DNA from: an uncultured Erysipelotrichaceae bacterium
GTDB taxonomy: Bacteria; Bacillota_I; Bacilli_A; RFN20; CAG-826
Assembly (NCBI GenBank): GCA_902797795.1
Contig: CADBUF010000012.1
Location: forward strand, 232-64,231
Direction: 5' to 3'
DNA length: 64,000 bases
A program made the position numbers and the translations under genes. Positions 5,210-57,147 of this stretch are shown piece after piece. The first letter of the stretch is position 1; every line of letters starts with the position of its first letter. The notes below the pieces were generated by a model. The model did not search any database. It was not told the origin of the DNA and saw only the letters and a list, made by a program, of their open reading frames with translations.

Positions 5210-5211
5210 AA

Positions 5212-6303: not shown

Positions 6304-6306
6304 TGA

Positions 6307-7605: not shown

Positions 7606-7608
7606 TTT

Positions 7609-8916: not shown

Positions 8917-8917
8917 A

Positions 8918-11242: not shown

Positions 11243-11246
11243 AGCC

Positions 11247-12481: not shown

Positions 12482-12485
12482 ACTA

Positions 12486-14626: not shown

Positions 14627-14726
14627 AACTCTTATATTTTACACTGATTACTTTCTTTTTAAGAATAATTGTTGTTTCACATTTCAAAAATGATATAGTT
14701 ATTTTTGGATATAGGAGAAATTACAA

Positions 14727-31796: not shown

Positions 31797-32720
31797 CTAT
31801 TTCTTTTTCTTTTTCTCTGTGTCTTCTTTATGAATCTGTTTCATTTCTTCTGTGTCTTGTTTGCCAGAAGTTTCGTTATAGAAGTTAACAATAATAGAGG
31901 TGATGACCGCCACAACGACAATGCCGTACATACCAAGAAGCACAGTAACTACTCTACCAATTAACGTTTTAGCAGTGAAATCGCCAAAACCAATCGTAGT
32001 GACAACCGCAAAAGAGTACCATAATCCATCACCAAAAGTTGTAATCGATTCTTCAAAATAGGCAAAGACAATCGCAGAAGCCACTACCATGGTTAATAAA
32101 CCAAGGAGAACTTCTAAAGCGAAAGTACGGATGATGATTTTTAATAATGTCTTTAGTTTTAATTGTAAGAAAGCGTTTGCAAGAACTTCGATTAAAGAAG
32201 CAATAATGACAATAAAACAAACTATCATAATTGGGGCAAACATTTCCGTAGGTCCATAAGGCACAAATAAACCAAGAGCGAGTAAAGCAAATAAAGTAAT
32301 AATAAGAGCGTTTAAAACAATACTTCTAACCGTCGGCTTTTGAATGATTTTAAAGATACGGGAAATAATAATAGAGATACAGAATATTCCCCCGCATGCA
32401 GAATAACAATAGGAGTTATCTTTACCAAAGTAGGCAATTACGCCTAGAGAAATATTTAGAACAAATAAAAAGGCAAATCTTATTAAATTAGTTCTTGTTC
32501 GATCTCTTAAATACGTAACGAATCTTGATAAACCTAAAACAATAAAGATTAAAAACATATAAACCGACACCATAGTAGCGTCAGGTGGAGTTAATCTTGC
32601 GTAATATAAGGCCATGATTGAAAAGGCCATGATGATAGTTGAAATAGCACTACCAAGAGTGAGCAAAAGCACCCTTACAGTGGTTTCAGTTAATTTTATT
32701 CTTCCGTGTTTTTTACTCAT
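31797..32720 (-). CDS. potassium-channel-like membrane protein (paralog A)
   Basis: 307 aa. Multi-TM N-terminus, pore helix + selectivity filter WYSFAVVTTIGFGD followed by an inner helix, Lys-rich C-tail. Confidence 0.65.
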   Translation of the reverse strand: MSKKHGRIKLTETTVRVLLLTLGSAISTIIMAFSIMALYYARLTPPDATMVSVYMFLIFIVLGLSRFVTYLRDRTRTNLIRFAFLFVLNISLGVIAYFGKDNSYCYSACGGIFCISIIISRIFKIIQKPTVRSIVLNALIITLFALLALGLFVPYGPTEMFAPIMIVCFIVIIASLIEVLANAFLQLKLKTLLKIIIRTFALEVLLGLLTMVVASAIVFAYFEESITTFGDGLWYSFAVVTTIGFGDFTAKTLIGRVVTVLLGMYGIVVVAVITSIIVNFYNETSGKQDTEEMKQIHKEDTEKKKKK

Positions 32721-34632: not shown

Positions 34633-35475
34633 TTATATAAATAATTGTTTGATTGTTTTGACAATCTTTCGTCTTTTTCCTTGATATATTCCATCACCAG
34701 AATATAGAACCTTAAATCCACACTTATCTAAAACCCTTAAGCTTGCCTTGTTGTTTTCAAGAACAACACCATAGACTTCTTTTAAATTTGTGTTTCTCTT
34801 TAAATATCCTAAGAAAAGATTTACGGCTTCTGTTGCATACCCTTTTTTGGTAAATAGTTTAGCGATGTGATAGCCTATTTCCCATCCTTCTTTTATTTTT
34901 ACTAATTGAATGTAACCAATATTTGCATTATCGTCTTTTCTAATAATTACGTATACAAACGGACCGTTTTCGCTACCATAGTTTTTAATAATTTGATCTA
35001 CCACTTCGCTAGCTTCTTCTAAAGATTCAAAGACTTCATCTGGAGAAAATTTTCTGTTGTCTTCGTCTTGTGAATTACGAAACACATCATAATACATGGA
35101 TTGATTCATTTTAGCTATATAGAGTCTATTTCCATCAATAAGTTTTTCACTTGTGTTTAATAACTCTTTGTTAACAATGTCTTTCCAATCTTGAAAATGA
35201 GAAAGAACACGTAATATAAATACGGTTTTTGTTGATTCGTTAATTTGATAAATAGCAATGTGATTTAAGCAAACTAAATAGTAAGACCTTGCATAATCAA
35301 ATAATGAATTTCTAATTTTGATTCCGCGGCTTGGAAAAGTAGATAAAGATTCCAATTTATCAAATATTTTTTCAATGTAATGAGTCGCAGCATTTATATT
35401 ATCAGCAGAAATAAAAGACTTGATGTTCTCCAAGTCTTTAAAGGCAGAATTAGAAATAATAACATTATATGTCAT
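34633..35475 (-). CDS. fusion protein: ParE/RelE-family type II toxin domain (N-term) + GNAT N-acetyltransferase domain (RimL/Acetyltransf_3-like, C-term)
   Basis: N-terminal about 95 aa has ParE/RelE hallmarks (FPSRGIKIRNSLFDYARSYYLVCLNHIAIYQINESTKTVFILRVLSH). C-terminal part has GNAT motifs (IGYIQL...GYATEAV...NKASLRVLDKCGFK). 4-nt overlap with the upstream antitoxin gene. Confidence 0.65.
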   Translation of the reverse strand: MTYNVIISNSAFKDLENIKSFISADNINAATHYIEKIFDKLESLSTFPSRGIKIRNSLFDYARSYYLVCLNHIAIYQINESTKTVFILRVLSHFQDWKDIVNKELLNTSEKLIDGNRLYIAKMNQSMYYDVFRNSQDEDNRKFSPDEVFESLEEASEVVDQIIKNYGSENGPFVYVIIRKDDNANIGYIQLVKIKEGWEIGYHIAKLFTKKGYATEAVNLFLGYLKRNTNLKEVYGVVLENNKASLRVLDKCGFKVLYSGDGIYQGKRRKIVKTIKQLFI

Positions 35476-38028: not shown

Positions 38029-38054
38029 AAAAGCGGGATTCCCGCTTTTTCTCT
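38029..38054 (+). terminator. rho-independent terminator after cls (possibly bidirectional)
   Basis: AAGCGGGAttCCCGCTT hairpin followed by TTTTTCTCTT. Confidence 0.7.
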
Positions 38055-38971
38055 TATTCCTTCTTGTTTTGTTCTTCAAGTTCCTTGATTTGTTTTTCAA
38101 GTCGCTCAATATCTCTTTGTTCTCTTTTCTTGTTCATTTCGTTATAGAAGTTAACGATGAAGGAAGTGAATACCGCGACAACGGCGATGCCACTTATTCC
38201 CAAGAAAACTGATAGAATTCTTCCAAAAGTAGTAACTACATATACATCACCAAAACCAATCGTGGTGATAACCGCAAATGAATACCACAAAGAATCAACA
38301 TAACTCACAATATTTGGTTCCACTAAAGTGAAATATAAGGAACATAAAATAACAAGGATAGATAGAGTTAAGATAATCTCATTAATAAGTGACTTTTTAA
38401 TGATGTTACTAATGACATTGAATTTTAATATGTTTTGATAAGGGAAGAGCAAATTCTTACCACTAGAAACAATGATCATCGAAGAAAAACATAGAACGAT
38501 AAAATTAGAATTACTAACTGAGGTAGCGTGTTTACCATAGATTTCTGGGAAAAAGAACACAAAAGAGAAGAGGAACGCTAAAGTGATACATAAACAGTTG
38601 AATATGATTGATTGTAAAGAACGATCTTCTCTTATCTTAAGTAAACGATAAACAACGATTGTTAAAGAATATAAGAACATCGAAGTAATAAGGAAATATA
38701 TGCTATATTTAGTAAGTGAGACTAAGACAGCAAGAACAAAAATAAAGGCGGTTAAGAAAATGTTTTCAAACATGTTCTTTTTAAAATTTGAAAGGTGTAA
38801 ACCAACGCGATTAATACCTAAACATACTAAGGCAATTGATAATGTGTAAAGACCAACGTAACTATCCTCCACTGAAAAAGCAACTGTGGCTATACAAAAA
38901 CCAATCGCGATTATTCCACTAATTAAGCCAAATATGTAGTAAGGGTTTTTTCTGTTTCCAACTTTTTCCAT
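38054..38971 (-). CDS. potassium-channel-like membrane protein (paralog B)
   Basis: 305 aa. WYSFAVITTIGFGD filter, same architecture as 31797-32720. Charged coiled-coil-like C-tail (EQRDIERLEKQIKELEEQNKKE). Confidence 0.65.
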   Translation of the reverse strand: MEKVGNRKNPYYIFGLISGIIAIGFCIATVAFSVEDSYVGLYTLSIALVCLGINRVGLHLSNFKKNMFENIFLTAFIFVLAVLVSLTKYSIYFLITSMFLYSLTIVVYRLLKIREDRSLQSIIFNCLCITLAFLFSFVFFFPEIYGKHATSVSNSNFIVLCFSSMIIVSSGKNLLFPYQNILKFNVISNIIKKSLINEIILTLSILVILCSLYFTLVEPNIVSYVDSLWYSFAVITTIGFGDVYVVTTFGRILSVFLGISGIAVVAVFTSFIVNFYNEMNKKREQRDIERLEKQIKELEEQNKKE

Positions 38972-39050: not shown

Positions 39051-41162
39051 TTACATTTTAATAATAAGGATATTTTTGTTATTAGAGTAATAATAATCAA
39101 TAGCCTTACTAATGTTACGAATAATAGAGATACCTAATCCTCCAACAATCCCTTCTTCAACGTTTTCTTGAACGGTTCTATTTTTCATTTTCAAAGGATT
39201 GAATGGGTGAGAATTATCAATAAAGATTAAGGTAATATCATCTTTTTTCTTTTCTACTTGGATAGTAATCTTTTTATTTGTTTTAGCCTTGCCGTAGGAG
39301 ATGATATTATTCAAAGCATCATCGATGATAACTCCAATTTTACTAACGACATCAACTGGTGACTCACTTAAATATTCACCAACTTGATTTGTGACTTTTT
39401 CAATATCGTCATAACAAGGATTTTCAATTTCAATATTTAAGATCTCTGGTCTAATTTTTAAAGAGAGAATTGTAATATCATCAAATTGTTCTTCCTTACC
39501 TCTAAATTTAGTAATGTCATCAATCGTATTATCGATTTTTTCTTTGATTTCTTTGTCATTATTCAAATCATCAAAAATTCTTTGATAACCATATTCTTCT
39601 TTTTTCTCATTAATCGCTTCATTTAATCCATCGGTGTGTAAGAATATTTCATCATTTTTATCAAGTTGGATAGATTCTTGTTCATAAATGAAATCTTCTT
39701 CTAAACCTAAAACAAAGTTAGAGTTAACTTTTAATTGTTGAAGTTTGCCTTTGTGTTTTACAAACGGACGTTCATGACCAGCGTTTACAAATTCAAATTT
39801 ATAAGTTTTCACATTAAGTACACCTAAGAAGACAGTGACAAAATATCCTTCTTTATTATTGATGCACAAACTGTTATTAACTTTGTTAAGTACTTCAGAT
39901 AAGCTTCTTTCAATGTGACATGCGGCTTTAATTTTTTCTTTCGCTCGCATCATAAATAAGCTAGCAGGAATACCTTTACCAGAGACATCAGCGATAACGA
40001 CCGCTAAGTGGTCTTTATCAACGAAGAAATAATCATAGAAATCCCCACCTACTACTTTAGCAGGAAGAATGAGGGTTCTAACTTCAATGTTATGTTCAAA
40101 ATATGTTGTGTCTGGTAAAGAATCCAATTGAATCTTACTAGCGATTTCTACTTCCGTATTAAATTGTTGCTCTTTAGCTTTAGCCTTTTTGATATTATCA
40201 ACATATTCAATGATTTGGTGTTGCATCTCATTAAATTCATTAGATAAGTCTCTAACTTCATCATTAGATTTGATGTTACTATTAATAACTTCTAAAGGTT
40301 CATCATTTTTCATCTTCTCAACGAAAGAAGTTGTCGCTTTTGATAATTTGCGGAAATTCTTAATAAGGAAAAATTTCGTAAATAAAGCATATATAACAAC
40401 TAGAACAATCGCTGCTCCAATAGTGATTAATAATTCAGTGGTTAATTGTTGATTGAATGTTTTATTAAATTCATATAGAGGATATTGAGTAACGATATAG
40501 CAACGGTATTTACTATCATCAACCCCCTCGGTGTAATATTTTAAGTAGGCATAAGAAGCATAATCATCCGCATATTTAGTGCTTGCTTGATTAGATGAAA
40601 GGAAAGATAATTCCGTATTATTAGTGACCCGATACGCTAATCCAACCACCCCGTAATTACCAGTAAGAGGGATACTACCTTCGACTAAATCGATGATCTT
40701 TCCTCTAAGAGCGTCATAAACAAACATTCGACTATTAACTGAAGTATAACGTTCGCTCACAGATTGAATGCTCGTAATAATTGAACCATAAAAGTTATTT
40801 CTAGCAGCCTGAATAAAAGATAAGCCCATTCCGCTGGTGCTACCAAATAAAGAAATTCGAGTATCTCCTTGATATTTAGCTAATTCAGTAGGGTCTAATT
40901 GCTCATAAGTATCCGCGACTGTTTCATATCTACTAATGAGCTCTTCAATAATCGATTGAAAGCCGTTATTTGGATCTGGAATAACTCTTACAACATCGTT
41001 AATAGAATTAGTGACTTGCTCACAAGTATTTGTGTAATTGTTTTTAGTGTTTTTATGGGAAATTAATAAGTTTACAGTTAGACTTGTGGTCACAATTAAA
41101 ATCGTCAACCCACCGGTTAACAAAATAATCTTACCAAGTAAACCAAGTCTAATTTTTTTCAT
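39051..41162 (-). CDS. membrane sensor with extracytoplasmic domain, HAMP linker, PP2C/SpoIIE-type Ser phosphatase domain and C-terminal RsbW-like HATPase_c_2 Ser-kinase domain
   Basis: 703 aa. TM1 (aa about 10-33), about 210-aa extracellular region, TM2 (LLITIGAAIVLVVIYALFTKFFLI), HAMP-like helices. PP2C motifs VGGDFYDYFF...ADVSGKGIPASLFM...HTDGLNEA. RsbW-like N/G boxes (IIDDALNNIISYG, IFIDNSHPFNP, GGLGISII). Confidence 0.75.
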   Translation of the reverse strand: MKKIRLGLLGKIILLTGGLTILIVTTSLTVNLLISHKNTKNNYTNTCEQVTNSINDVVRVIPDPNNGFQSIIEELISRYETVADTYEQLDPTELAKYQGDTRISLFGSTSGMGLSFIQAARNNFYGSIITSIQSVSERYTSVNSRMFVYDALRGKIIDLVEGSIPLTGNYGVVGLAYRVTNNTELSFLSSNQASTKYADDYASYAYLKYYTEGVDDSKYRCYIVTQYPLYEFNKTFNQQLTTELLITIGAAIVLVVIYALFTKFFLIKNFRKLSKATTSFVEKMKNDEPLEVINSNIKSNDEVRDLSNEFNEMQHQIIEYVDNIKKAKAKEQQFNTEVEIASKIQLDSLPDTTYFEHNIEVRTLILPAKVVGGDFYDYFFVDKDHLAVVIADVSGKGIPASLFMMRAKEKIKAACHIERSLSEVLNKVNNSLCINNKEGYFVTVFLGVLNVKTYKFEFVNAGHERPFVKHKGKLQQLKVNSNFVLGLEEDFIYEQESIQLDKNDEIFLHTDGLNEAINEKKEEYGYQRIFDDLNNDKEIKEKIDNTIDDITKFRGKEEQFDDITILSLKIRPEILNIEIENPCYDDIEKVTNQVGEYLSESPVDVVSKIGVIIDDALNNIISYGKAKTNKKITIQVEKKKDDITLIFIDNSHPFNPLKMKNRTVQENVEEGIVGGLGISIIRNISKAIDYYYSNNKNILIIKM

Positions 41163-41165
41163 TAT

Positions 41166-41465
41166 CTATTCCACTGTTAAGAATTTATCAAAACCAGTGA
41201 CGGAGAAAATTTCTTTAATGACGTCGTTACAGTTTTTAATCACTAATTTCTTATTAGTGGCTTGTGCGTCTTTTTTAAAGGCGATTAATAGTCTTAATCC
41301 AGCAGAAGAGATGTATTCGAGTTTTGCAAAATCCAAAACAACATCTAAATCATTTCTTTCTTCATGAGGAACTTTTTCAGTTAATTCTTGGGAAGTAACG
41401 GTGTCTAATCTTCCTTCTAAGGCGATTGTGATAACACCTTTTTCTTTAGTTGTTTTAATAGTCAT
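41166..41465 (-). CDS. STAS-domain anti-sigma-factor antagonist (SpoIIAA/RsbV-like)
   Basis: 99 aa. ITIALEGRLDTVTSQEL...LDFAKLEYISSAGLRLL with conserved phosphorylatable Ser in the YISSAGL motif. Confidence 0.8.
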   Translation of the reverse strand: MTIKTTKEKGVITIALEGRLDTVTSQELTEKVPHEERNDLDVVLDFAKLEYISSAGLRLLIAFKKDAQATNKKLVIKNCNDVIKEIFSVTGFDKFLTVE

Positions 41466-41467
41466 AA

Positions 41468-43234
41468 TTACGCTCCTTGTAAATTAATTTCTAAATATGT
41501 ATTGTTGGTATTTAACACTCTTGTGTAAGACATGTTAGATATCACTTTTCTCACTAATAATATACCACTAGTGGAGAATTCATGTTCATCTTCTTTATAT
41601 TGGGTTGGATCGAAGATGATTCCATCATCTCTAATAGAGAGTAACATTTTATCATTACTTATTCTTAAGGTGACGTCGATATAATAACGATGATTTTTAA
41701 AGCGATAACCATATTGGATGATATTAGCCACCATTTCTTCAGCGCCAATAGAAATCATCGTCGCATCTCTTTTATTCGCCCCATGTTTTAAGGCATATTC
41801 TTTTACTTCCATTGATAATTCTTCAACTTCATTGATGTCGTTAGTAATCGTGACATCATATTTATCTTGAATTTCAATATTAGGAATCATTAATAATCCT
41901 TCGGAAGTAGTTTTCTTCTTCTTGTTATAAATATAAATAAAGATATAAGTGATAAAGACAGTTCCTAATTCTGTTGCCGCTTGAGACACACAATATCCCT
42001 TTAAACCATAAGAGAATAATAGGCCTAAAGTTAAAGGAATAACTAAAATTAATTCTCGACATAATACAGTGACATAGGCAGGAACATTTTTAGTAATAGT
42101 CGGGTAATACATTTGATTGTATTTAGAAATCTCATAAGGAATAAAAGCAGCGAGATAAATCCAAATACATGTAAAGGTAAGACCGCTATTAGAGGTATAT
42201 TCACTAAATCCAAAGACTGTGCAATAAACTCCAGGGAAGATGGCAATAAGAGCGGTTAAAAAGACAGTTACCGCTAAATTAATAATGAAGATTTTTTTCG
42301 CTATTTTTCTTAAGGCGTAATAATCTCTTTCCCCATAAAGCACCCCACAAATATTTGGAATGGTTTGGATAATTCCACCTGCAAATAAATCAAAGACAAA
42401 GACCATGTTGGCAAGAATTCCAAAGATCATAATCTCAAAATTATCTTCAATTACTTTTGAAACATAGATCGAACAAATCGACATCTGTATCGCCGTTAAA
42501 AACATATTAAGGGCAAGCGAACTACTAGCCTTCAATGAATCAATCAAGCACTCCTTAGATGAGTCAAATTTAAAGGTCAATGAAAGCATACGTTTTTTGC
42601 TCTTAATATAGAAAAATACGAGCAAAATGCCGACAAAATATCCAAAACCGGTAGATAAAGCCGCTCCATACATCCCCATATCGCACCACTTAATAAAGGC
42701 GTATTCGGAACCAATTTTAAAGATATTAGCGACGATATACATCGCTGAAGCAAGACGTGGATTATTGTCTGCGCCAATGAAAGATCCTAAAAGTAAAGCA
42801 AGGGTGATAATTGGATCAGTGAGCATGAAGATAAGAATATATTGTCTAGCGTATTCAACGATATCGTTTGGGCAGAATAATTTCGCTAATGGTTCAGCAG
42901 TTAAATAGGCTAGTCCAGCAAATAAAAGAGAAAAAGCCATACCAATAATTAAACATAACGAGAATGTTGTTTTGGATTTAGAGACATTCCGTTTGCCTAA
43001 ATAATTAGCCACTACAATAGCACCACCCGTACCGATAGCAAATCCAGGCAATTGAATGATATATAAAATCGGTAAAACAAGAGAGGAAGCACTTAAAGCG
43101 TCATTACCAATGAAGTTACCAACAAAGATACCATCCACAAGCGAGCCAAATTGCATCGCAAAAATCATGAACATTGAAGGAAGAAGATATTGGATAAGTT
43201 TTTTATCCATCAATTTAGAATTACGAGCAAGCAT
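41468..43234 (-). CDS. MATE-family transporter fused to C-terminal RsbW/SpoIIAB-like HATPase_c_2 (anti-sigma-factor-type Ser kinase) domain
   Basis: 588 aa. N-terminal about 440 aa 12-TM MATE hallmark (LLPSMFMIFAMQFGSLVDGIFVGNFIGNDALSASSLVLPI...GTGGAIVVANYLGKRN). C-terminal about 140 aa with kinase N-box EMVANIIQYG, G1 IRDDGIIFDP, G2 STSGILLV. Confidence 0.65.
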   Translation of the reverse strand: MLARNSKLMDKKLIQYLLPSMFMIFAMQFGSLVDGIFVGNFIGNDALSASSLVLPILYIIQLPGFAIGTGGAIVVANYLGKRNVSKSKTTFSLCLIIGMAFSLLFAGLAYLTAEPLAKLFCPNDIVEYARQYILIFMLTDPIITLALLLGSFIGADNNPRLASAMYIVANIFKIGSEYAFIKWCDMGMYGAALSTGFGYFVGILLVFFYIKSKKRMLSLTFKFDSSKECLIDSLKASSSLALNMFLTAIQMSICSIYVSKVIEDNFEIMIFGILANMVFVFDLFAGGIIQTIPNICGVLYGERDYYALRKIAKKIFIINLAVTVFLTALIAIFPGVYCTVFGFSEYTSNSGLTFTCIWIYLAAFIPYEISKYNQMYYPTITKNVPAYVTVLCRELILVIPLTLGLLFSYGLKGYCVSQAATELGTVFITYIFIYIYNKKKKTTSEGLLMIPNIEIQDKYDVTITNDINEVEELSMEVKEYALKHGANKRDATMISIGAEEMVANIIQYGYRFKNHRYYIDVTLRISNDKMLLSIRDDGIIFDPTQYKEDEHEFSTSGILLVRKVISNMSYTRVLNTNNTYLEINLQGA

Positions 43235-43236
43235 AA

Positions 43237-46200
43237 TTAATCGTCCCTTTCAAAGTAATCTAAGGAAATCAAAGACTTAATAGCCTTAGTTAAATATTCT
43301 TGGTCAGTAATTGGCCATTTATAGCCTAAGCGGTAAAGCGCTTTAATCGAAAATGAATTATCGGTAAGGATATAAGAGTGAGAATGATTATCACTACTTG
43401 TATAAGTAATTAAAGCAGACACTTTCTTGCTCTTAACGTCATCATTTGTAGCTTTAATAACCTCATCCATAAATTCTTTATCCCCAACTTTTTCAATCTT
43501 TAAGCCACAGTCATTCATTGCTTCAATCACATCACCCATTTCTACAGGATGAGAATTTGCACTATGGAAGACGGTGAATTCTTTTGGAGCGGTCGCTAAA
43601 ACGAGAATGCTCTTAGCGACTTCATCAATTGGAGAGAAGTCGGTCGTTTCATCCAAAGAAGAGATTGGGAATTTTCCTAAAGCGTAATAACCTCGTAGAG
43701 ATCGCATAAATCCGTTAGTAATAGAGTTAATTTGGAATTCTCCATCGCTTTGACGTGACATCAAATTACCGACACGAACAATCTTTCCATCTAATCCATC
43801 TTTATTAATTGCCTCTAACATCGCTGCTTCCGCCATAAACTTAGAATGGATATATTTGTTAGAAATATCTTGTCCGATGTCTAATTGGTTTTCTTTCATA
43901 CGGAAGTTTTCAGCGAACTTATGGTCAATATTTTCGCCCGCAACTGATAAAGTGGAGATTTGAATCATTCTCGCATTATGCTTTAAAGCGATTCCAATGA
44001 GGTTTTTCACCCCTCCAACATTAATTTTTTCAATGATATCATCATTTGAGAAATGTTTAACAATCGCTGCTGAATTAATAAGTGTGTCAAATTTGATATC
44101 TTTGAGTTTATCGGTTAAGTTCTCGTCTGCAATATCTCCATCAACGATATGAATAAAGCTATCAAGTTCTTCAGTAAATGGAGAATCGAAATAATATTCA
44201 AGTAATAGAGAAAGTCTACTATGTAAGGAGATTTGTTTACTTCTTACTAACACATATGTTTCTATGTGCTGATCAATTAATTCTTTAAGAATATGAATTC
44301 CTAAAAAGCCAGTCGCACCAGTTAAAAGGACAACACCTAAATCTCTTTCTTTATGAATATCATCAACATATTCAATCGTGTTTTTATTAAGCGCTGCATA
44401 TTTATTATCCTTAGATTCTTCTACTGCTTTTTCTTCTTCCACCACCTCTTCATCTTTATTAATTAATGAAGCAAGTTCAAGGGCAGTAGAATGTTCAAAA
44501 ACATCTTTATAGGCAATTGGTAAGCCCTCTTTAAGAGCGAGCATTGCAACTTTTGAAGCGCTTAAAGAAGTACCACCTAATTCAAAGAAATCTTCATCGA
44601 TTCCGATATCTTGTTTTCCAAGGGCTTTAGCAAAGATTTCACAAATCGTTTTTTCAGTTTTGTTTCTAGGTGCTTTCTTTTCTTTATTAGAGGAAGTAGA
44701 AACAATTTCTGGTAATGATTTCTTATCAATCTTGCCATTAGGAGTAAGAGGGATACGATCAAGTTGCATCATTGCTTTAGGAATCATATATGGGGTAAGT
44801 GATTTTGCCATATATGAAGTTAAAGTTTCTTTATCTAAAGGTTTTGACGCGGTGTAATAAAGCGCTAAATAGTCGCCATCAACATCATTATTTTTCACTA
44901 AAATGACGCATCTAGTGACGTCTGGATGAGAATTACAAACGTTTTCAATCTCATCTAATTCAATTCTTAATCCATGTAATTTTATTTGGTTATCAAGACG
45001 TCCAAAGAATTCGGTGTTACCTTCATTATTCATTCTAGCAAGGTCACCACTTCGATAGGCTCTTTTACCGTTTAAATCAATAAATGAGGCTTTGGTTTTT
45101 TCTTCAAGTTTATAATAGCCAATACCAACACTATCACCGGCAATAGTTAAATCACCAATCGCATTAATTGGTAAAATATGACCAGCCTTATCCAAGATGT
45201 AATAGCTAGTGTTAGCAACAGGTTTACCAATAGTGACATATTTATCAGTAATAAAGGTCATTGATGAAGTAATCGTTGTTTCTGTTGGACCATAACCATT
45301 ATCAATCAGGCAATCAATGCCATGTTTTCTTATACGATCCACTAATTCATAAGGAACAGCCTCTGCTCCCATATCAAGCACTTTGAAGTTCTTTAATGCT
45401 TCAACAAATTCTAGAGTATCTAAAACGTTAGAAACGTATGAAGGAGTTAAGAACATAATGTTAACTCCATATTTCTTTAATGTTTGTGATAATAAAAGTG
45501 GGTTTTCAATCTCTTCTTCACTAGCGATCACTGCTTGATAACCATGAGAGAGAATGACACATTCTTCTTGTAAAGAAGCATCAAAAGCAAAAGAAGCAAA
45601 CGAGCAGCTAGACACTTTGTCTTTAATAATGCGATATTCGTTAGTGGCTAAATTAGCGCCATCTAAGACATAATTTGATAAATTCTTATGACTAATCATC
45701 ACCCCTTTAGGTTTACCAGTGCTACCAGAGGTATAGATGATGTAACATAGTGAATCTAGTGGGATACCAATATTTAAATTGCTTGTCTTATTAGATTTCA
45801 AAATGTCTTCAATTAAAAGAACTTTAATCTTTGTCTTTTTAATGAGGTCATGTTTTTCTTTTTCAATATCTTTAGTGGTTATTAAAATCTTCGCGTCACT
45901 ATCGGTGATGATATATTCAATACGATCATCAGGATATTTAGGATCAATAGCGACAAAGGCTCCACCCGATTTAAGAATACCTTCTCTAACGAAATAAGCA
46001 CTTACTCTTCTAGGCATGAGCATGATTACTCTTTCACCAAGAGCGACTTTATCTTCAGACAAAGCATGAGCGACTTTATTCGCGTTTTCGTTAAATTGTT
46101 TATATGTATATTCTCCATCAACACCCGCTAAAGCGAGTCTATTTGGATATTTCTCCACTATTTCTTCTACGATCTTAGGGTAGGCTTTATTTGAAGGTTT

Positions 46201-49200
46201 AACATATGTTTGGTTAAATTCTTCATATAACTTTTTATCAACTTCTGGTAAGCAGTTAATTTCACTGATGTGTTTTTTAGATGTCACTTCCAGTAACGCC
46301 AATTCAAATAATCTAGCAAATGATTCAATCGTATTCTTGTTATACATTGATTCATCATATTCAAAATGAAGTTTGAATTTATTATCTTCGATGAAAACAT
46401 CTAAAGAGAATAGTGATTTCGCATCATCTGAATCCAATATCACACTTTCAGCTTTCTTATTACCGATTTCATTAAATTCAAATAAGTCTCCTTGATAAGC
46501 AAACATCACATCACTAGTGATATTAAAGGCTGAGGCTATTTCTTGGAAAGAATAGATGTCGTTTATTTGTGAAGACTCTAATTGTTTCTTCATCTCTTCT
46601 AGTAGAGATAACACTTCATCATTTTCTTGATATTTAACATAAACTGGTAAAGTTTTTACCATCATCGAAACAGTGTTCATGTTCTTAGATGAATTTCTCC
46701 CATTATAGATAGTGACAAACAAAGCATCCTGCTTATAAATAAATTTAGAGAAGGTAAAACCAAATACGAAGTTAGTGATCGCATTTAGGGTTAAATTGTT
46801 CTTACTAGCGAATTCTTTAATCGCTTTGACATCAATATTAGAATAGATATCTTCAACATGTAATTTAGCGACTTCTTCAGTCTTTAAATCTTTCTTCATG
46901 AGATATCCATCTTCGACATCTTTCAATAAAGTAGCGTAATATTCTTTCGCATTTTCATAGGCTTTTGAATTACGTTTATCGTTCTCTTCTAAAGCAAGTT
47001 CATAGCCAGTGAAGGTTTCTTTTTCAAGCTTTTCACCAGAATAAGCTTTATTAATATCATTTAAAAGGATATTTTCACTAGTGCCATCACAGATAAGATG
47101 ATGAACATCTAAGAAGAGGTAATTATTATCTTTACATTCATAGATTTCAACACGATATAAAGGACCACCAACGATTTCAAAAGGTCTAACCAAAGATTTT
47201 TGATCGAGCTTATTAGCTTTAATAATTTCAACTTTTGGTTCAGCTTCTTTTCTTATAGCCTTGATGTTCCCATCATCGTCCATCTTCAAAGTTGTTAAAA
47301 GATATTCATGAGCCTTTAAGGCCTTAATCACACTTTCATTAAGTTTATTGATATCGATAGACTTATCAATTTTAAATAATAAAGGAATGTTATAATTTGT
47401 ACTTCCAACTTTAGCGATTGATTCAATAAAGATACCTTCTTGAGTCTTGGTTAATGGGTATTCACTTAATAAATCATAAGTCTTGTTTTCATCTTGTTCT
47501 TCCATCAAAGAAGCGAGTTCTTTAATGTTAGGGTGCTCGTTTAAATCTTGAGAAGAGATCTCTTTATTAAATGCTTTAGATAATCTCACAGTTAAAGTGA
47601 TAGAAGAAATAGAGGTAATACCAGCCTCATATATATCAGTAGTCACTCCAAAAGAATCATGACCTAAAATCTCTTTTATAATATCAAAGATCTTTTGTTC
47701 ATTTTCAGTGCTAGGTTTAACGACATCCTCCACTTTCAATTCAGGAACTGGTAAAGCTTTTTTATTCACTTTTTGGTTTTGATTAAGTGGAATTGCATCT
47801 ATTTGCATAATATATGGGGGGACCATATAAGGTGGCTTTTTACTTTTAATGAAAGCTTTTAAGTCATCAACGTCAATCTTTTTATCACTGACGATATAAC
47901 CCACGATATATTTAACTCCAGCGGGGTCCGCAAAATCTTTAACAGTCGCGTCTTTAATGTCTGGATATTGTCTAATAACTTGTTCGACTTCACTTAATTC
48001 CACACGGAAGCCACGTATTTTCACTTGGAAGTCTTTTCTTCCAATAAAATCGATATCTCCATTTGGAAGGAATCTTACGATATCACCAGTCTTATAAAGT
48101 TTTTTAAATCGAGGATCATCATCGAAAGGATTAATCAAGAAGGCCTTTTTATTTTCTTCGTCTCTATTTAGATATCCACGAGACACTTGAGGACCAGAAA
48201 TATATAACTCACCTTTAGCAAGATATGGTAATCTCTTTTTATTTTCGTCTAATACATAGAATTTATAATCGCTTAAAGCGTGACCAATTGGGATACGATG
48301 ATAAAGTTTATCAACATGATATCCGGAACAATATATTGTTCCTTCTGTTGGTCCATATAAATTGAATAGCTTATAGTTTTTAGGTGGGTCAAGAGGGACT
48401 AACTTTTCTCCTCCTACAGAAATAGTTCTAATCGTTTCAAATGTTAATTCACTCACTAATTGTCGACCTACTTGAGTAGTAAAGAAGGCATCAGTAATTT
48501 TATTTTCATTTAAATATTTATTTAGTCCAATGAGATCTAATCGCATCTCTTCAGGAATGATATAAATAGTTCCCCCGACCACGATAGTTGGATATAAATC
48601 AAGCATATCAGCGTCAAATCCATATGAAGCATAGGCACTCACTCTCGCGTCATGTTGGAGATTTCTAAAATTAATATCAACATTACAAACTGACATGATG
48701 TTTTGGTGTTCTAACATTACTCCTTTAGGAACACCAGTGGAGCCAGAAGTATATAACATGATAAAAAGGTTTTCAGGTCTAGGTCTATTTGTAGGTCGAG
48801 ATTCATCTTTCAATTTATCAAATTCATCAAGATAAATAACTGGGCCTTTATATTCATCGAGTAAATCAATATATTGTCTTTCGGCGATAACAACTTTACT
48901 AGATGCATCCTTAACCATGAAGTTAAGTCTTTCTTTAGGATAAGAAACATCTAATGGTTGATAGGCTGCACAAGATTTAATAACTCCTAAAGAGGCAATA
49001 ACAATATATTCACTTTTCGAAATAAGGATTGAAACTTTGTCTTCCTCTTTAACACCAAGTCTAATCAATTCATTAGCGATTCTATTTGAATAGAGGTCAA
49101 CTTCCTTATAGGTGTAACTCTTATCTTTATAGACCACTAAGGTTTTATTGGGCTCCTTATTAAGCCAATAATCAAATTTATCAAGAATTGTTTTTCCCTG

Positions 49201-50472
49201 TTCAAGTTGACTCATATCAACATGATTAAAGTCATCTAAAATCTTGATTTGTTTTTCATCTAAAAGTTCAATTTCTTCAAGTTTTAATGGTGATTTGAGC
49301 AGTTTTTTAAGAATTATGTCATATAAATCAATGATTTGATTAATCGAGTCATCACTATATAAATCACTTCTAAATTCAAACCAAATATAGAACTTATTTC
49401 TATCTCTATGGATCTCAATAGACATGATTCCTTTTCCATCTTTTTCTTCGATTTGTTTAGCCACTACTTCTTTGTCGTTGAATGTTGTTTTAAACATATA
49501 ATCACCTTGATAGGCAAATAAGATTTCAGGAGAGACACCTAAATTTGTAACAACTTGAGAGAAGGAATATAAATCATGTTTAACATTATTAATCAATTCG
49601 TCATTAACCTTATTAAACATTTCTTTGGAAGTTTTGATATTTTCTAAATTGAGATAAAGAGGGAATGTCCTTACAAACATACCAAAAGTATTTTCTAATG
49701 TTTCATCTCTACCATTATGAATGGAAGCAATTATTACTTCTTTGTCCATGTTCACTTTTGAAAGGAGGAACATAAAACAAGAGATAAAATAGCTTGATGT
49801 TTTAATTCCTTGCTTATGAGTAAATTCACGAACCTCACTAGCGTCAACTTTTAATTCTTTTTTAATCGTATGATGACTAATTTCTTCTTTTTTATAGTCC
49901 TCGACTATTGTACTTTCAGTGTCGATTCCACCATAGTTGTCTTTATAATATTTTTCAGCTTCTTTAAATTCCTTGGATTTTAGAAGTTTTTGTTCGCGCT
50001 TACAGTAGGAGAAGACATCTTCTTTTTCAGAAGGTATTTTCTTTCCTTTATATAAAGCATCTAAGGAATCAATGAATAATTTAATTGTGTTACCATCAGC
50101 GATGATGTGATGGAAATCAAAAAATAGATAATATTCTTTATTAACTTTTAAAAGCTCAAAACGATATAAGTGATGGTTAAATAGATCAAATTCCTTCACC
50201 AACCCTTTTTCATTAATCTTTTTTAATTCTTTAAGAGGGACTTTGATATCTTCTACATGACATTCTTTGTAGAAGTTTCCTTCATCATCTTTTTTAATGA
50301 TCGTAAATATCCCTTGATGGACTTTACTAAACTCATTAATAGCGGCCTCTATTTTCTTGGCGTCAACATCTTCTCCTAAAGGTAATAAAGAAGGGAGGTT
50401 ATATTTAGTTGTCGGTTTTAAACATTCAAACAAAATCCCTAATTCAGATTGCGATAAAAGATACTTTTCCAT
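43237..50472 (-). CDS. dimodular non-ribosomal peptide synthetase, C-A-T-C-A-T-R (terminal thioester reductase)
   Basis: 2411 aa. C1 HHIIADG (aa 121-127). A1 cores LYTSGSTGVPKGV / NLYGPTEG / YKTGDIVRF...GRKDFQVKIRGFRVEL with FDAD (Asp235). T1 GITSIS. C2 HHLICDG. A2 YTSGSTGKPKGV / NGYGPTET / YRSGDLARM...GRLDNQIKLHGLRIEL with FDAS. T2 LGGTSLSA. R domain Rossmann VVLLTGATGFLGIHIL. Confidence 0.95.
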   Translation of the reverse strand: MEKYLLSQSELGILFECLKPTTKYNLPSLLPLGEDVDAKKIEAAINEFSKVHQGIFTIIKKDDEGNFYKECHVEDIKVPLKELKKINEKGLVKEFDLFNHHLYRFELLKVNKEYYLFFDFHHIIADGNTIKLFIDSLDALYKGKKIPSEKEDVFSYCKREQKLLKSKEFKEAEKYYKDNYGGIDTESTIVEDYKKEEISHHTIKKELKVDASEVREFTHKQGIKTSSYFISCFMFLLSKVNMDKEVIIASIHNGRDETLENTFGMFVRTFPLYLNLENIKTSKEMFNKVNDELINNVKHDLYSFSQVVTNLGVSPEILFAYQGDYMFKTTFNDKEVVAKQIEEKDGKGIMSIEIHRDRNKFYIWFEFRSDLYSDDSINQIIDLYDIILKKLLKSPLKLEEIELLDEKQIKILDDFNHVDMSQLEQGKTILDKFDYWLNKEPNKTLVVYKDKSYTYKEVDLYSNRIANELIRLGVKEEDKVSILISKSEYIVIASLGVIKSCAAYQPLDVSYPKERLNFMVKDASSKVVIAERQYIDLLDEYKGPVIYLDEFDKLKDESRPTNRPRPENLFIMLYTSGSTGVPKGVMLEHQNIMSVCNVDINFRNLQHDARVSAYASYGFDADMLDLYPTIVVGGTIYIIPEEMRLDLIGLNKYLNENKITDAFFTTQVGRQLVSELTFETIRTISVGGEKLVPLDPPKNYKLFNLYGPTEGTIYCSGYHVDKLYHRIPIGHALSDYKFYVLDENKKRLPYLAKGELYISGPQVSRGYLNRDEENKKAFLINPFDDDPRFKKLYKTGDIVRFLPNGDIDFIGRKDFQVKIRGFRVELSEVEQVIRQYPDIKDATVKDFADPAGVKYIVGYIVSDKKIDVDDLKAFIKSKKPPYMVPPYIMQIDAIPLNQNQKVNKKALPVPELKVEDVVKPSTENEQKIFDIIKEILGHDSFGVTTDIYEAGITSISSITLTVRLSKAFNKEISSQDLNEHPNIKELASLMEEQDENKTYDLLSEYPLTKTQEGIFIESIAKVGSTNYNIPLLFKIDKSIDINKLNESVIKALKAHEYLLTTLKMDDDGNIKAIRKEAEPKVEIIKANKLDQKSLVRPFEIVGGPLYRVEIYECKDNNYLFLDVHHLICDGTSENILLNDINKAYSGEKLEKETFTGYELALEENDKRNSKAYENAKEYYATLLKDVEDGYLMKKDLKTEEVAKLHVEDIYSNIDVKAIKEFASKNNLTLNAITNFVFGFTFSKFIYKQDALFVTIYNGRNSSKNMNTVSMMVKTLPVYVKYQENDEVLSLLEEMKKQLESSQINDIYSFQEIASAFNITSDVMFAYQGDLFEFNEIGNKKAESVILDSDDAKSLFSLDVFIEDNKFKLHFEYDESMYNKNTIESFARLFELALLEVTSKKHISEINCLPEVDKKLYEEFNQTYVKPSNKAYPKIVEEIVEKYPNRLALAGVDGEYTYKQFNENANKVAHALSEDKVALGERVIMLMPRRVSAYFVREGILKSGGAFVAIDPKYPDDRIEYIITDSDAKILITTKDIEKEKHDLIKKTKIKVLLIEDILKSNKTSNLNIGIPLDSLCYIIYTSGSTGKPKGVMISHKNLSNYVLDGANLATNEYRIIKDKVSSCSFASFAFDASLQEECVILSHGYQAVIASEEEIENPLLLSQTLKKYGVNIMFLTPSYVSNVLDTLEFVEALKNFKVLDMGAEAVPYELVDRIRKHGIDCLIDNGYGPTETTITSSMTFITDKYVTIGKPVANTSYYILDKAGHILPINAIGDLTIAGDSVGIGYYKLEEKTKASFIDLNGKRAYRSGDLARMNNEGNTEFFGRLDNQIKLHGLRIELDEIENVCNSHPDVTRCVILVKNNDVDGDYLALYYTASKPLDKETLTSYMAKSLTPYMIPKAMMQLDRIPLTPNGKIDKKSLPEIVSTSSNKEKKAPRNKTEKTICEIFAKALGKQDIGIDEDFFELGGTSLSASKVAMLALKEGLPIAYKDVFEHSTALELASLINKDEEVVEEEKAVEESKDNKYAALNKNTIEYVDDIHKERDLGVVLLTGATGFLGIHILKELIDQHIETYVLVRSKQISLHSRLSLLLEYYFDSPFTEELDSFIHIVDGDIADENLTDKLKDIKFDTLINSAAIVKHFSNDDIIEKINVGGVKNLIGIALKHNARMIQISTLSVAGENIDHKFAENFRMKENQLDIGQDISNKYIHSKFMAEAAMLEAINKDGLDGKIVRVGNLMSRQSDGEFQINSITNGFMRSLRGYYALGKFPISSLDETTDFSPIDEVAKSILVLATAPKEFTVFHSANSHPVEMGDVIEAMNDCGLKIEKVGDKEFMDEVIKATNDDVKSKKVSALITYTSSDNHSHSYILTDNSFSIKALYRLGYKWPITDQEYLTKAIKSLISLDYFERDD

Positions 50473-50477: not shown

Positions 50478-51092
50478 TTATTCCTCCAAAGAATTGATTT
50501 TCTTAATATTTATATTAAATGGTTTTTCCTCTTTTAAAGTAAGAGATAACGAATAGCCATCATATATCATCGATTTAGTGTAACCACCATATCTATTTCC
50601 TTCTAAAGGAAGGCCCTTTATTTTTCTTATATCCATAAGCGAATTAGAGAAACATTTAATAAGGCTTTCTTTATTAGACCAAAGAAGGAATAAATCATTG
50701 ATATCATTAATTTCTTTTTCTTCATCCACTAATGAATATTTAATCGCCCCAATTTTGCTTTGATCAATGCGTTCAATATCCACTCCAACATCTCTATCTA
50801 TAGAGACAGCAAGAACAACATATTCCCCTGAATGTGACAAATTAAAATATGGTCCATTTTCCATATAAGGCTTACCATTATCGGTAAATTTAATCTCTTT
50901 ATGTGGAAGAAATTTATATAGTAAATACCCTCCACCCAAGGAGAGAATTTGATCCTTTTTTTGAACGAACCTATTAGCTTTTTCAATTCGACTTTTATCA
51001 ATATGAGAAACAATAAAAGAATAATTGTCGTTTACAAAAGAAGTATGAAGAATATAGACATTAATTTCATTCATTAAAAAATATTCTAACAC
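50478..51092 (-). CDS. Sfp-type 4'-phosphopantetheinyl transferase
   Basis: 204 aa. VGVDIERI and WSNKESLIKC (W..KE...K) motifs. 5-nt gap to the NRPS start. Confidence 0.8.
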   Translation of the reverse strand: MLEYFLMNEINVYILHTSFVNDNYSFIVSHIDKSRIEKANRFVQKKDQILSLGGGYLLYKFLPHKEIKFTDNGKPYMENGPYFNLSHSGEYVVLAVSIDRDVGVDIERIDQSKIGAIKYSLVDEEKEINDINDLFLLWSNKESLIKCFSNSLMDIRKIKGLPLEGNRYGGYTKSMIYDGYSLSLTLKEEKPFNINIKKINSLEE

Positions 51093-55767: not shown

Positions 55768-57147
55768 TTATTTTCCTTTATACCTTTCTCTTTTAATAAA
55801 TTTACCATAGCCACGTTCACCAAGGAACTCACCATCTTTAAAGACTAATTTGCCTCTTAAATATGTAGAAGTTACATATCCGTGACATTTATAGCCTTCC
55901 CAGATTGTGTGGTCATAATTAGAATGCATATTTTTTACGGAAACAGTGAATTCTTTCTTTGGATCAAATAGAACAATATCTGCATCTTTTCCGACTTCTA
56001 AGCTTCCCTTATCTTTGCAGCCAAAGATTTTAGCAGGATTATAAGAACAAACTCTCACCACTGTTTCATATGTGGTCTTTCCTTCGTTAGCTTTAGCGAG
56101 CATATAAGGATACATGTTTTCAATACCTGCACATCCATTAGGGATTTTCGTAAAATCATCTTTGCCCCATAATTTTTCACTTTGTTGGAATGGACAATGA
56201 TCTGTCGCTACTGTATCAATATAGCCTTCATTTAATGCTTTCCATAATGCTTCAAGGGAATCTTGACCTTTCATTGGTGGAGAACAAACGAAGTTGATTC
56301 CATTTTCTCTTTTAAATACTTCGTTAGTGAATTCTAAATAATGTGGACAAGTTTCAACTTTAACGTCATACCCTTTCTTTTTGGCGTCAATAATTGCGTC
56401 AAGTCCTTCTTTATCTGACATATGAACAATATAAACAGGGGTATTAAGATGAGTGGCCCAATGAACCGCTCGTTTATCTGCTTCGGCAGCCACAAATTCT
56501 GGTCGAGATAAATAGTGGTACCAGGCGCTAGTCTTGCCTTCTTTTAGGAATTGTTCACTTCGAACATCGATGATGTCTGGATTTTCAGCGTGTAAGTTGA
56601 GCATCGCACCCACTTCTTTACATCTTAAAAGGAGTTGATAAATCATTCCGTCATCCACCATCATTCCTTCTTTTTTATAGACCATATAACCTTTAAAAGA
56701 AGTGATACCAGATTCACAAGCTTCATCCATCTCTTTTAATATTTCTCCATCATTGAAATTAGTGATCGCAACGTGGAAAGAATAATCACAGCAGGCATCT
56801 TTTTCACACATTTCAAATCTTGGTTTAAGTGTTTCTTTAATTGAATTGCCCTTTCTTTGGCATGGGTAATCAATAATTGATGTCGTTCCACCACATAAGG
56901 CCGCTCTTGTACCAGTAAAATAATCATCAGCGGAAATCGTTCCACCAAAAGGCATCGCTAGATGGGTGTGAACATCAATTGCTCCAGGAACAACTATCTT
57001 TCCTGAGGCGTCCACCACTTCTTTTGCAGGCTCTAAAATGCTTTCTTTAATTAAAGCAATCTTTCCTTCCTTAACAGCGATATCTACTTTTTTTATTCCA
57101 TTAGGTAAAACAACTTGGCCATTTTTAATCAAAAGATCAAATTCCAT
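55768..57147 (-). CDS. hyuA: D-hydantoinase / dihydropyrimidinase
   Basis: 459 aa. GAIDVHTHLAMPFGGT metal-binding motif, carboxylated-Lys region and amidohydrolase fold. Confidence 0.8.
   Translation of the reverse strand: MEFDLLIKNGQVVLPNGIKKVDIAVKEGKIALIKESILEPAKEVVDASGKIVVPGAIDVHTHLAMPFGGTISADDYFTGTRAALCGGTTSIIDYPCQRKGNSIKETLKPRFEMCEKDACCDYSFHVAITNFNDGEILKEMDEACESGITSFKGYMVYKKEGMMVDDGMIYQLLLRCKEVGAMLNLHAENPDIIDVRSEQFLKEGKTSAWYHYLSRPEFVAAEADKRAVHWATHLNTPVYIVHMSDKEGLDAIIDAKKKGYDVKVETCPHYLEFTNEVFKRENGINFVCSPPMKGQDSLEALWKALNEGYIDTVATDHCPFQQSEKLWGKDDFTKIPNGCAGIENMYPYMLAKANEGKTTYETVVRVCSYNPAKIFGCKDKGSLEVGKDADIVLFDPKKEFTVSVKNMHSNYDHTIWEGYKCHGYVTSTYLRGKLVFKDGEFLGERGYGKFIKRERYKGK

Follow-up and report, generated by a model that had tools for sequence, protein, structure and literature searches.

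The 64,000-nt stretch of DNA examined here, called the window throughout, comes from an uncultured Erysipelotrichaceae bacterium (contig CADBUF010000012.1, assembly GCA_902797795.1) and encodes a fusion protein of 588 residues, of which residues 1 to 440 are a DinF-type MATE transporter and residues 458 to 588 are a GHKL domain of the RsbW/SpoIIAB type. Its gene lies between those for a nonribosomal peptide synthetase (NRPS) and a STAS protein, and the next gene encodes a membrane-bound PP2C phosphatase that ends in a second GHKL domain; below, the GHKL domain of the exporter is called the A-domain and that of the phosphatase the B-domain. We propose, tentatively and at a little short of an even chance, that these genes form a partner-switching module in which the exporter is the target, in the place of the sigma factor. 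The fusion gene is composed of the following parts.

41468..43234, minus strand: the MATE-GHKL fusion gene, one open reading frame (ORF) of 588 residues with an ATG start.
41915..43234, minus strand: the DinF-type MATE moiety, residues 1 to 440, with about 12 transmembrane (TM) helices (Pfam MatE, NCBIfam PRK09575, structure model and Foldseek).
41864..41914, minus strand: the basic and hydrophobic linker, residues 441 to 457, KKKKTTSEGLLMIPNIEIQ, with low model confidence at residues 451 to 455.
41471..41863, minus strand: the A-type HATPase_c_2 domain (anti-sigma-factor-type GHKL), residues 458 to 588 (Pfam, profile and fold matches).
41723..41740, minus strand: the N-box of the A-domain.
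41603..41629, minus strand: the G1 box of the A-domain.
41552..41575, minus strand: the degenerate lid of the A-domain.

The Pfam search of the ORF yields MatE in two stretches (E 1.6e-25) and HATPase_c_2 at residues 464 to 572 (E 6.4e-11, 42.8 bits against a cut-off of 27.4), with the general HATPase_c model giving a marginal match only. The NCBIfam MATE model PRK09575 aligns to residues 10 to 438, and weak RsbW matches cover residues 475 to 550. The AlphaFold2 model of the full-length fusion has a mean pLDDT of 78, with a confident helical bundle at residues 7 to 440 and low confidence in the linker at residues 451 to 455. A sequence-only reading of this DNA had described a single 588-residue fusion of a MATE transporter of about 12 TM helices with an RsbW/SpoIIAB-like kinase domain. 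That description stands, the Pfam, profile and fold searches being in agreement, the helical bundle and the Foldseek matches bearing out the MATE half, and the frame being kept across many species.

The same reading had allowed that a sequencing error might have created the fusion. An artefact of this kind, in which two separate genes, one for a MATE protein and one for an RsbW-like protein, were joined through a frameshift in sequencing or assembly or through faulty gene calling, could be suggested by a related contig (L041), the sole "split" copy met, which is called as two overlapping genes (MatE, 427 residues, and HATPase_c_2, 168 residues). However, this split begins inside TM12 and results from a single frameshift, and the other members of its 90% cluster are intact at 603 residues. 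The best 120 matches in a collection of 5.8 billion proteins are 549 to 597 residues long and all carry PF01554 and PF13581, at identities from 98% down to 51%, and 30 of these family members, once aligned, are collinear across the MATE/GHKL junction. A scan with one genome per species finds the in-frame fusion in 40 species-level genomes, all of them metagenome-assembled, with the named sources being ruminant gut (rumen, omasum) and the labels being Erysipelotrichaceae, Bacilli, Clostridia, Christensenellales or Acholeplasmatales. When 1.84 billion cluster representatives are searched with a profile built from the C-terminal domain only, 6560 match at E <= 1e-3 and 1049 at E <= 1e-10. Among the best 150 matches, 142 are new sequences, 70 of which have at least 540 residues, and 68 of these 70 possess the MATE N-terminal part; sampled representatives of this wider family carry MatE and HATPase_c_2 in 10 of 10 cases according to Pfam. 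The junction DNA (AACAAGAAGAAGAAAACTACTTCC) has no long homopolymer. Since the fusion recurs in frame and at the same length in more than 120 protein clusters (51 to 98% identity), in 40 independent species-level genomes and, at greater distance, in no fewer than 68 clusters at 50% identity from many samples, we reject the artefact on comparative evidence and regard it as exceedingly improbable. An internal start at M449, which would release a free A-domain, was considered too and dropped, this Met not being conserved and being replaced by Leu in many orthologues.

The Foldseek matches for the MATE half are PfMATE (PDB ID 6FHZ, TM-score 0.81, target-normalised), DinF-BH (PDB ID 4LZ6) and VcmN (PDB ID 6IDP), with ClbM (PDB ID 4Z3N) lower down. 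All 30 family members compared have D34, and this residue corresponds in the alignment to D40 of DinF-BH, where entry 5C6N has an Asn. We take D40 of DinF-BH and D41 of PfMATE to be the conserved TM1 acidic residue for proton/substrate coupling. The MATE-fold matches and the invariant D34 make the transporter look functional, as a proton-coupled pump of the DinF type. The NCBIfam subfamily cut-offs are missed (PRK09575 with 101.6 bits against 445, TIGR00797 with 88.6 against 147.4), and judged by its sequence the MATE half is a divergent MATE and no orthologue of a named pump.

The linker motif G-[LIV]-[FL]-[ML]-[IL] is kept in the subfamily, and distant relatives show a hydrophobic LL[LM][LI] stretch. 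In the linkers between TM12 and the GHKL domain of the window protein and of loci L044 and L051 to L055, a hydrophobic motif follows the basic stretch (GLLMIP, GIFMLE, ILLLS, MLMLE) and is kept even at about 25% identity. This motif may be a membrane-interface or docking element.

A single-sequence search of the PDB with the C-terminal 151 residues gave nothing relevant. For the family profile, the five best PDB matches are SpoIIAB and RsbW, and in the profile alignment E500 and N504 coincide with the Glu and Asn in the SpoIIAB motif S-E-A-V-T-N, and R-D536-D537-G538 with R-D-E-G. Modelled alone (pLDDT 74), the A-domain has the order strand-helix-helix-strand-strand-lid-helix-strand-strand. 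Its Foldseek matches are SpoIIAB (PDB IDs 1L0O and 1TH8, TM-score 0.73), RsbW (PDB IDs 6M36 and 6M37), UsfX (PDB ID 8IH8) and the RsbW domain of Rv1364c (PDB ID 3KE6), all of which rank above histidine-kinase catalytic domains, and its superposition on SpoIIAB and RsbW gives TM-scores of 0.6 to 0.73. Profile and fold searches therefore place the C-terminus in HATPase_c_2, with SpoIIAB and RsbW, which removes the second doubt voiced in the sequence-only reading, that this region might fall outside the family.

Motif conservation was counted in 41 orthologues for the A-domain, 38 for the STAS protein and 33 for the PP2C and B-domains. In the A-domain, residues E499, E500, N504, G509, Y510, D536, D537, G538, F541, P543 and T544 are invariant, and E500 and N504 of the N-box are invariant also in 10 divergent relatives. 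The N-box (EEMVANIIQYG) and the G1 box (RDDGIIFDPT) are present, as had been read from the window sequence. In the wider family the G1 box reads DDG in 43 members, DNG in 11 and DSG in 3. The stretch SGILL, earlier taken for the G2 box, exists in the sequence but is not a canonical G2 box: the lid reads S-T-S-G-I in the window and x-T-[S/G]-G-[I/L] as the family consensus, G557 being the only Gly kept. Thr555 is found in 40 of the 41 orthologues, and residue 556 is Ser in 31 and Gly in 7. Kinase activity of the A-domain is plausible by sequence, since the equivalents of the catalytic Glu, the Mg-binding Asn and the G1 Asp-x-Gly are invariant, as is the Ser of the STAS protein. SpoIIAB requires bound ADP or ATP for holding SpoIIAA or sigma-F, so conserved nucleotide-binding residues are to be expected in a domain that only binds as well, and by themselves they are no proof of catalysis.

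The other genes and domains of the operon are the following.

50478..51092, minus strand: the first gene, an Sfp-type 4'-phosphopantetheinyl transferase (PPTase) of 204 residues (Pfam AASDHPPT_N 3.6e-09, ACPS 1.1e-06).
43237..50472, minus strand: a two-module NRPS of 2411 residues with the domain order C-A-T-C-A-T-R and a terminal NAD-dependent reductase (Pfam).
41166..41465, minus strand: a single-domain STAS protein of the anti-sigma-factor antagonist type, 99 residues (Pfam STAS 2.7e-16).
41304..41306, minus strand: S54, the predicted phospho-acceptor of the STAS protein (alignment).
39051..41162, minus strand: a membrane sensor of 703 residues with two TM helices, a HAMP-like linker, a PP2C domain and a second HATPase_c_2 domain (Pfam, hydropathy scan).
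40434..41090, minus strand: the extracytoplasmic domain of the sensor, residues 25 to 243 (about 220 residues), between TM1 (residues 6 to 24) and TM2 (residues 244 to 262) (hydropathy scan).
39453..40049, minus strand: the PP2C phosphatase domain of the SpoIIE/RsbU type, preceded by the HAMP-like linker (Pfam SpoIIE 7.4e-43).
39054..39395, minus strand: the B-type HATPase_c_2 domain, residues 590 to 703, at the C-terminus of the sensor (Pfam HATPase_c_2 7e-11).

These five genes, the fusion included, lie on one strand, with their ribosome-binding sites within the preceding genes. The PPTase gene stops 5 nt before the NRPS start, the gaps from the NRPS stop to the MATE start and from the MATE stop to the STAS start are 2 nt each, and the PP2C gene starts 3 nt after the STAS stop. 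The NRPS immediately upstream and the adjoining STAS gene had both been recognised in the sequence-only reading, which made no mention of the PP2C and second HATPase_c_2 gene at 39051..41162. A promoter and terminator scan found promoter-like sites in smaller number than in shuffled sequence and no convincing internal terminator. The Pfam domains of the NRPS are two each of Condensation, AMP-binding and PP-binding, followed by NAD_binding_4 at residues 2050 to 2289. The window also encodes two paralogous multi-TM proteins of about 305 residues with a C-terminal Ion_trans_2 potassium-channel pore (38054..38971 and 31797..32720, both minus strand), one of them directly after the operon, and homologues occur near the cassette in loci L019 and L021.

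The STAS protein scores 65.6 bits against the NCBIfam model ant_ant_sig (cut-off 53.45) and has a weak mlaB_1 match. Its motif Y51-I-S-S-A-G-L-R58 is invariant, and S54 aligns with the phospho-Ser of SpoIIAA (Ala in 1TID_B) and of TM1442. In the PP2C domain, the motifs GGDFYD, D-V-S-G-K-G, T-D-G-L-N and F-D-D-x-T are invariant or nearly so and the metal-binding motifs are intact. By its sequence the phosphatase is almost certainly active, which implies that the STAS protein is phosphorylated by something. For the extracytoplasmic domain of the sensor, there is no Pfam match. The B-domain has invariant D614, E615, N618 and N619 and an invariant lid G674-G675-x-G677, whereas at its G1 Asp position 19 of the 33 orthologues have Ser, 5 have Asp and 4 have Thr, the window reading D-N-S. 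In the rumen subfamily, the A-domain thus appears from these alignments to be the better candidate kinase of the two, because the adenine-contacting Asp is under selection only there.

This candidacy also serves a different reading, in which the transporter is the sensor: substrate binding or the MATE cycle would alter the tethered A-kinase, phosphorylation of the STAS protein would report intracellular product load or export flux, and the STAS protein would relay to a target outside the exporter, which might be the NRPS, the PP2C-B protein or some regulator whose gene lies elsewhere. Such a flow would suit the catalytic Glu, Mg-binding Asn and G1 Asp-x-Gly equivalents kept in all 41 A-domain orthologues, the loss of the G1 Asp from the B-domain in most subfamily members, which leaves the A-domain as the best candidate kinase for an invariant STAS Ser and its phosphatase, and the short linker of about 17 residues to TM12. 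On the other hand, a separate, dedicated membrane sensor is already there, the lid of the A-domain is degenerate, and the cassette has no conserved output component: a sigma factor, a DNA-binding protein and a nucleotide cyclase are all absent from it and from the conserved neighbourhood of the 40 loci. We consider this reading rather unlikely.

The operon proteins were compared with the loci of the 40 genomes by tblastn. The NRPS is 52 to 85% identical across these loci and stands directly upstream of the fusion wherever the contig extends far enough, and the STAS and PP2C-B genes follow the fusion directly in 37 of the 40. A PPTase homologue is present in most related loci, in an upstream position or else behind the PP2C gene, and the whole cassette order is repeated in L041 and L056. 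Compared with the window sequences, the MATE half averages 53% identity, the A-domain 44%, the STAS protein 48%, the PP2C domain 46%, the B-domain 30% and the extracytoplasmic domain 13%. A second STAS gene is found near the cassette at 14682..17670 in L007, 3..1836 in L025 and 1794..2054 in L039, in the first two together with a second PP2C gene, so such organisms have several of these modules, and cross-talk is possible. In L042 and L043, a related cassette lies in short ORFs (AMP-binding fragments of 245 and 212 residues, a separate reductase of 243 residues and MATE-GHKL pieces of 161 and 203 residues), being either a decaying copy or the product of a low-coverage assembly (about 8x).

The A- and B-type domains cluster apart, with a mean identity of 19% across the two types against 34% inside A and 25% inside B, and the B-type groups with a standalone RsbW-like protein (P0184). 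The A-type signature consists of EE..N, Y-I-D, R-x-R-D-D-G-x-x-F-D-P-x-x-Y, the one-Gly lid and Y-x-R-x-L-x-x-N-N-T. The gene contexts of divergent family members, in which the fusions are 19 to 37% identical to the window protein, were taken from 12 single locus look-ups and are as follows.

L045: the reductase end of an NRPS, MATE-A-B (tandem GHKL), STAS.
L046: GH3, MATE-A-B, APH, A-T-C NRPS.
L049: MATE-A-B, STAS, a free canonical GHKL protein, SpoIIE without a GHKL domain.
L051: MATE-A, an NRPS of 3015 residues, a free canonical GHKL protein, STAS.
L052: MATE-A, an adenylating enzyme.
L053: an NRPS of 2472 residues, MATE-A, PPTase.
L054: STAS, PP2C-B (canonical D-D-G, GGLG), two further genes, MATE-A, a molybdenum hydroxylase, A-T-C NRPS.
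L055: MATE-A, a STAS-APH fusion, an acyltransferase, a STAS-adenylating-enzyme fusion, a short-chain dehydrogenase.

In all eight divergent contexts the fusion has an NRPS or an adenylate-forming enzyme beside it, and five of them include a STAS protein. A second GHKL domain, usually with the full canonical motif set, is found in five of the eight, as well as in the tandem variant P0191. In this and two other MATE proteins, an A-type domain is followed by a B-type domain on the same polypeptide (P0191 from L045, 786 residues; P0256 from L046 to L048, 754 residues; P0290 from L049 and L050, 757 residues), unlike in the window, where A and B reside on two different proteins.

These tandem proteins open a further possibility, that the A-domain is a pseudokinase scaffold which, by pairing with the B-domain in the manner of the RsbW and SpoIIAB dimers, tethers the PP2C-B sensor, or enzymes tagged with STAS, to the exporter, with neither phosphorylation nor gating, the outcome being a membrane complex that joins biosynthesis, sensing and export. 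The occurrence of B in three forms, standalone, fused to PP2C and fused after A, would fit such a complex, as would the degenerate A lid with its further losses in single members (the D-N-C of the L055 G1 box and the missing lid Gly of L038) and the three genomes with MATE-A but no adjacent STAS and PP2C genes. Yet the invariant catalytic-type Glu, Asn and Asp of the 41 orthologues exceed the need of a pure scaffold, a point that nucleotide-dependent binding could explain, the A-B distance correlation (partial r 0.40) is no higher than that of A and STAS (0.55), and L055 has A and STAS without B. We judge a pure scaffold distinctly unlikely.

Locus L055 (GCA_024712465.1, JAMQYI011463577.1) bears on the transporter-as-sensor reading as well. 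Within the 10.7 kb covered there is no PP2C and no second GHKL domain, and at 4956..6170 and 7437..9311 a STAS domain forms the N-terminus of an APH-type kinase (404 residues) and of an adenylate-forming enzyme (624 residues). Both fusions keep the Ser of the YI[ST]S.GLR motif and adjoin a MATE-GHKL protein whose G1 box reads D-N-C. The A-domain and STAS can therefore occur together when the other parts are missing and STAS is joined to biosynthetic enzymes, an arrangement that resembles docking or regulation at the exporter and not signalling away from it.

We therefore prefer the exporter as the target of the switch. The cassette is self-contained, with no output other than the exporter and the NRPS, and already possesses a dedicated membrane sensor (two TM helices, extracytoplasmic domain, HAMP linker and PP2C). 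Its A-domain is of a specialised clade which co-occurs with STAS and, in most cases, with a further GHKL domain of more canonical sequence, and STAS-enzyme fusions stand beside MATE-A in L055. In the mechanism we envisage, the sensor phosphatase, on an extracytoplasmic cue that is possibly the exported product, would dephosphorylate Ser54 of the STAS protein, and the unphosphorylated STAS protein would bind the nucleotide-loaded A-domain on the exporter, altering export activity or docking there. Phosphorylation of the STAS protein would reset the switch, the kinase being most likely the A-domain in the rumen subfamily, as the adenine-binding Asp of the B-domain is not conserved there, and the canonical B-domain elsewhere. 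Export of the NRPS product would in this way be gated post-translationally, without a transcription factor. In a more specific form, which is possible and which we put forward with some reserve, the GHKL domain would be a receptor built into the exporter, where unphosphorylated STAS proteins or STAS-tagged enzymes gate or channel the efflux of a reactive peptide aldehyde and the sensor phosphatase sets their state. The direction suggested in the sequence-only reading, in which flux through the transporter gates STAS phosphorylation, becomes less likely given the missing other output, the dedicated sensor, the degenerate A lid, accompanied in most of the divergent systems by a more canonical second GHKL domain, and the STAS-enzymes of L055. 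The weight that remains after these readings falls to some explanation that we have not considered.

Several observations weigh against the exporter as target. The canonical G-x-G of the G2 box (GGLG in RsbW, SGMG in SpoIIAB) is not found in the A-domain, a loss that is visible in alignment with B-type and RsbW-like domains; L038 has an A-domain without even the lid Gly, and L055 has D-N-C in its G1 box. With this single-Gly lid and these two divergent members, kinase activity of the A-domain is uncertain as judged from the alignments. In 3 of the 40 genomes (L023, L026 and L028), the fusion has intact motifs but unrelated genes downstream, with no STAS or PP2C gene, and no STAS is found nearby in L052 and L053, so the A-type domain can exist without an adjacent switch. 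Mirror-tree partial correlations are 0.55 for A and STAS, 0.55 for B and STAS and 0.40 for A and B; the fast-evolving extracytoplasmic domain is correlated equally, and the A-STAS pair is not singled out. The full-length model gives no usable information on docking of the A-domain on the transporter, as confidence in the linker is low. Finally, the mechanism and the direction of information flow are inferred only.

The closest known systems to a switch with the exporter as target are the SpoIIAB-SpoIIAA-SpoIIE and RsbW-RsbV-RsbU/P partner switches of Bacillus, in which a GHKL kinase, a STAS protein with a Ser at the same aligned position and a PP2C phosphatase are likewise encoded side by side. 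These differ in the role of a sigma factor, which the window module does not encode. The Bacillus kinase is a free dimeric protein of about 145 residues, whereas the window GHKL domain is covalently tethered to a 12-TM exporter and has a degenerate G2 lid, and the window module has two GHKL domains for one STAS protein and is embedded in an NRPS operon. Multidomain relatives are Mycobacterium tuberculosis Rv1364c, a PAS-PP2C-RsbW-STAS protein (PDB ID 3KE6), and Vibrio fischeri SypE, with the order RsbW-REC-PP2C; both reportedly act on a STAS substrate, and the output of SypE is non-sigma. In Rv1364c, whose structure was also matched by the A-domain model, an RsbW-type domain comes after PP2C, which is the order seen in the 703-residue neighbour of the fusion. 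This neighbour departs from Rv1364c and SypE in being a membrane sensor with two TM helices and an extracytoplasmic domain and in the frequent absence of the G1 Asp from its GHKL domain; in addition, a transporter carries an extra GHKL domain here.

Among transporters, the mycobacterial MviN/MurJ is said to have been described by Gee et al. in Sci Signal in 2012 as having a cytoplasmic pseudokinase domain, with phosphorylation-dependent protein binding reportedly controlling the transporter. This would likewise be a MOP-superfamily transporter with a C-terminal cytoplasmic kinase-like domain, though one of the Hanks-type fold that is regulated through PknB and FhaA, whereas the window domain is of the GHKL/Bergerat fold, with STAS and PP2C as its partners. 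The SulP/SLC26 transporters with their C-terminal STAS domain and MlaB of MlaFEDB also place one component of the anti-sigma and antagonist pair on the cytoplasmic side of a transporter (STAS proteins are reviewed in PMC8256260). They carry the STAS half, whereas the window transporter, of the MOP/MATE superfamily, carries the kinase or anti-sigma half and has a separate STAS protein.

Regarding the biosynthetic context, ClbM of the colibactin island (PDB ID 4Z3N) is also a MATE transporter inside an NRPS-type cluster, presumably exporting the product, but it has no cytoplasmic signalling domain and no STAS or PP2C genes alongside. In PMC12327764, C-A-T-C-A-T-R clusters of gut bacteria are reported to make dipeptide aldehydes or pyrazinones, the examples being ruminopeptin of Ruminococcus bromii and the clusters of Guo et al. 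2017. The products of such dipeptide-aldehyde clusters are reported to be protease-inhibiting and have been hard to obtain from cultures (PMC12327764). The window operon shares with them the NRPS domain order with its terminal reductase, the adjacent PPTase and the gut anaerobe host. For the Anabaena STAS-glycosyltransferase All4160 and HenR, STAS phosphorylation controls a biosynthetic or export-related membrane process (bioRxiv 10.64898/2026.04.08.717354). This partner-switching-like module, under kinase/phosphatase control, has a non-transcriptional output as well, and L055 offers comparable cases in its STAS-APH and STAS-adenylase fusions. The Anabaena kinases are free proteins, and no transporter-linked GHKL domain takes part.

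Other loci of the window are of separate interest. The ORF at 34633..35475 (minus strand, 280 residues) combines a ParE toxin domain at residues 5 to 97 (E 1.9e-14) with a GNAT Acetyltransf_3 domain at residues 117 to 255 (E 1.8e-22); this may be a single protein with two different toxin-type activities, or two genes merged in gene calling. The regions 568..13085 (minus strand) and 14727..15641 (plus strand) encode two sets of molybdenum enzymes of the xanthine-dehydrogenase family with their FAD and 2Fe-2S subunits, together with a PreA-like DHO_dh/4Fe-4S protein, two adjacent amidohydrolases, a PLP-dependent lyase, a MobA-like cofactor enzyme and a carbamate-kinase-type gene. This cluster looks like one for anaerobic purine or urate degradation; a further amidohydrolase is encoded at 55768..57147. 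At 20697..22130 (minus strand), a protein of 477 residues with DUF6937 and DUF6938 (E 1e-109 and 2e-84) is encoded, flanked by a glutamate dehydrogenase gene on one side and by the genes of a glycoside hydrolase and an MFS sugar transporter on the other.

All the domains described here and the logic of the partner switch are already known, and the fusion itself is stored in databases under automatic labels, as [quoted passage not shown] by the JGI pipeline and as "ATP-binding protein" by that of NCBI. Our literature search for MATE fusions with HATPase_c_2 or RsbW and for partner switches of NRPS or peptide-aldehyde clusters found no paper on the architecture, and a survey of rumen biosynthetic clusters (PMC8241843) does not mention it. 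What appears to be undescribed is an anti-sigma-type GHKL domain tethered to a MATE exporter, forming a sequence clade of its own and regularly partnered by STAS, PP2C and a second GHKL domain in NRPS clusters of the gut and rumen.

Partner switching is the textbook case of sigma-factor control, with few non-sigma outputs known, and a transporter carrying the kinase half would add direct post-translational control of small-molecule export, as a mirror image of the SLC26/SulP transporters that carry the STAS half. The module sits in a very widespread family of gut and rumen NRPS clusters. If the switch holds off export or synthesis, the substitutions S54A and S54D in the STAS protein, deletion of the phosphatase and removal of residues 441 to 588 would be practical levers by which production could be started. 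The family is both large and modular: the A-domain occurs by itself or in tandem with B, B also occurs free or joined to PP2C, and STAS can be fused to enzymes. It offers a system for studying how GHKL and STAS partners are rewired. Should the proposed receptor role of the A-domain hold, the cassette would represent a portable, transcription-independent module of export control common to many small NRPS clusters of gut and rumen anaerobes.

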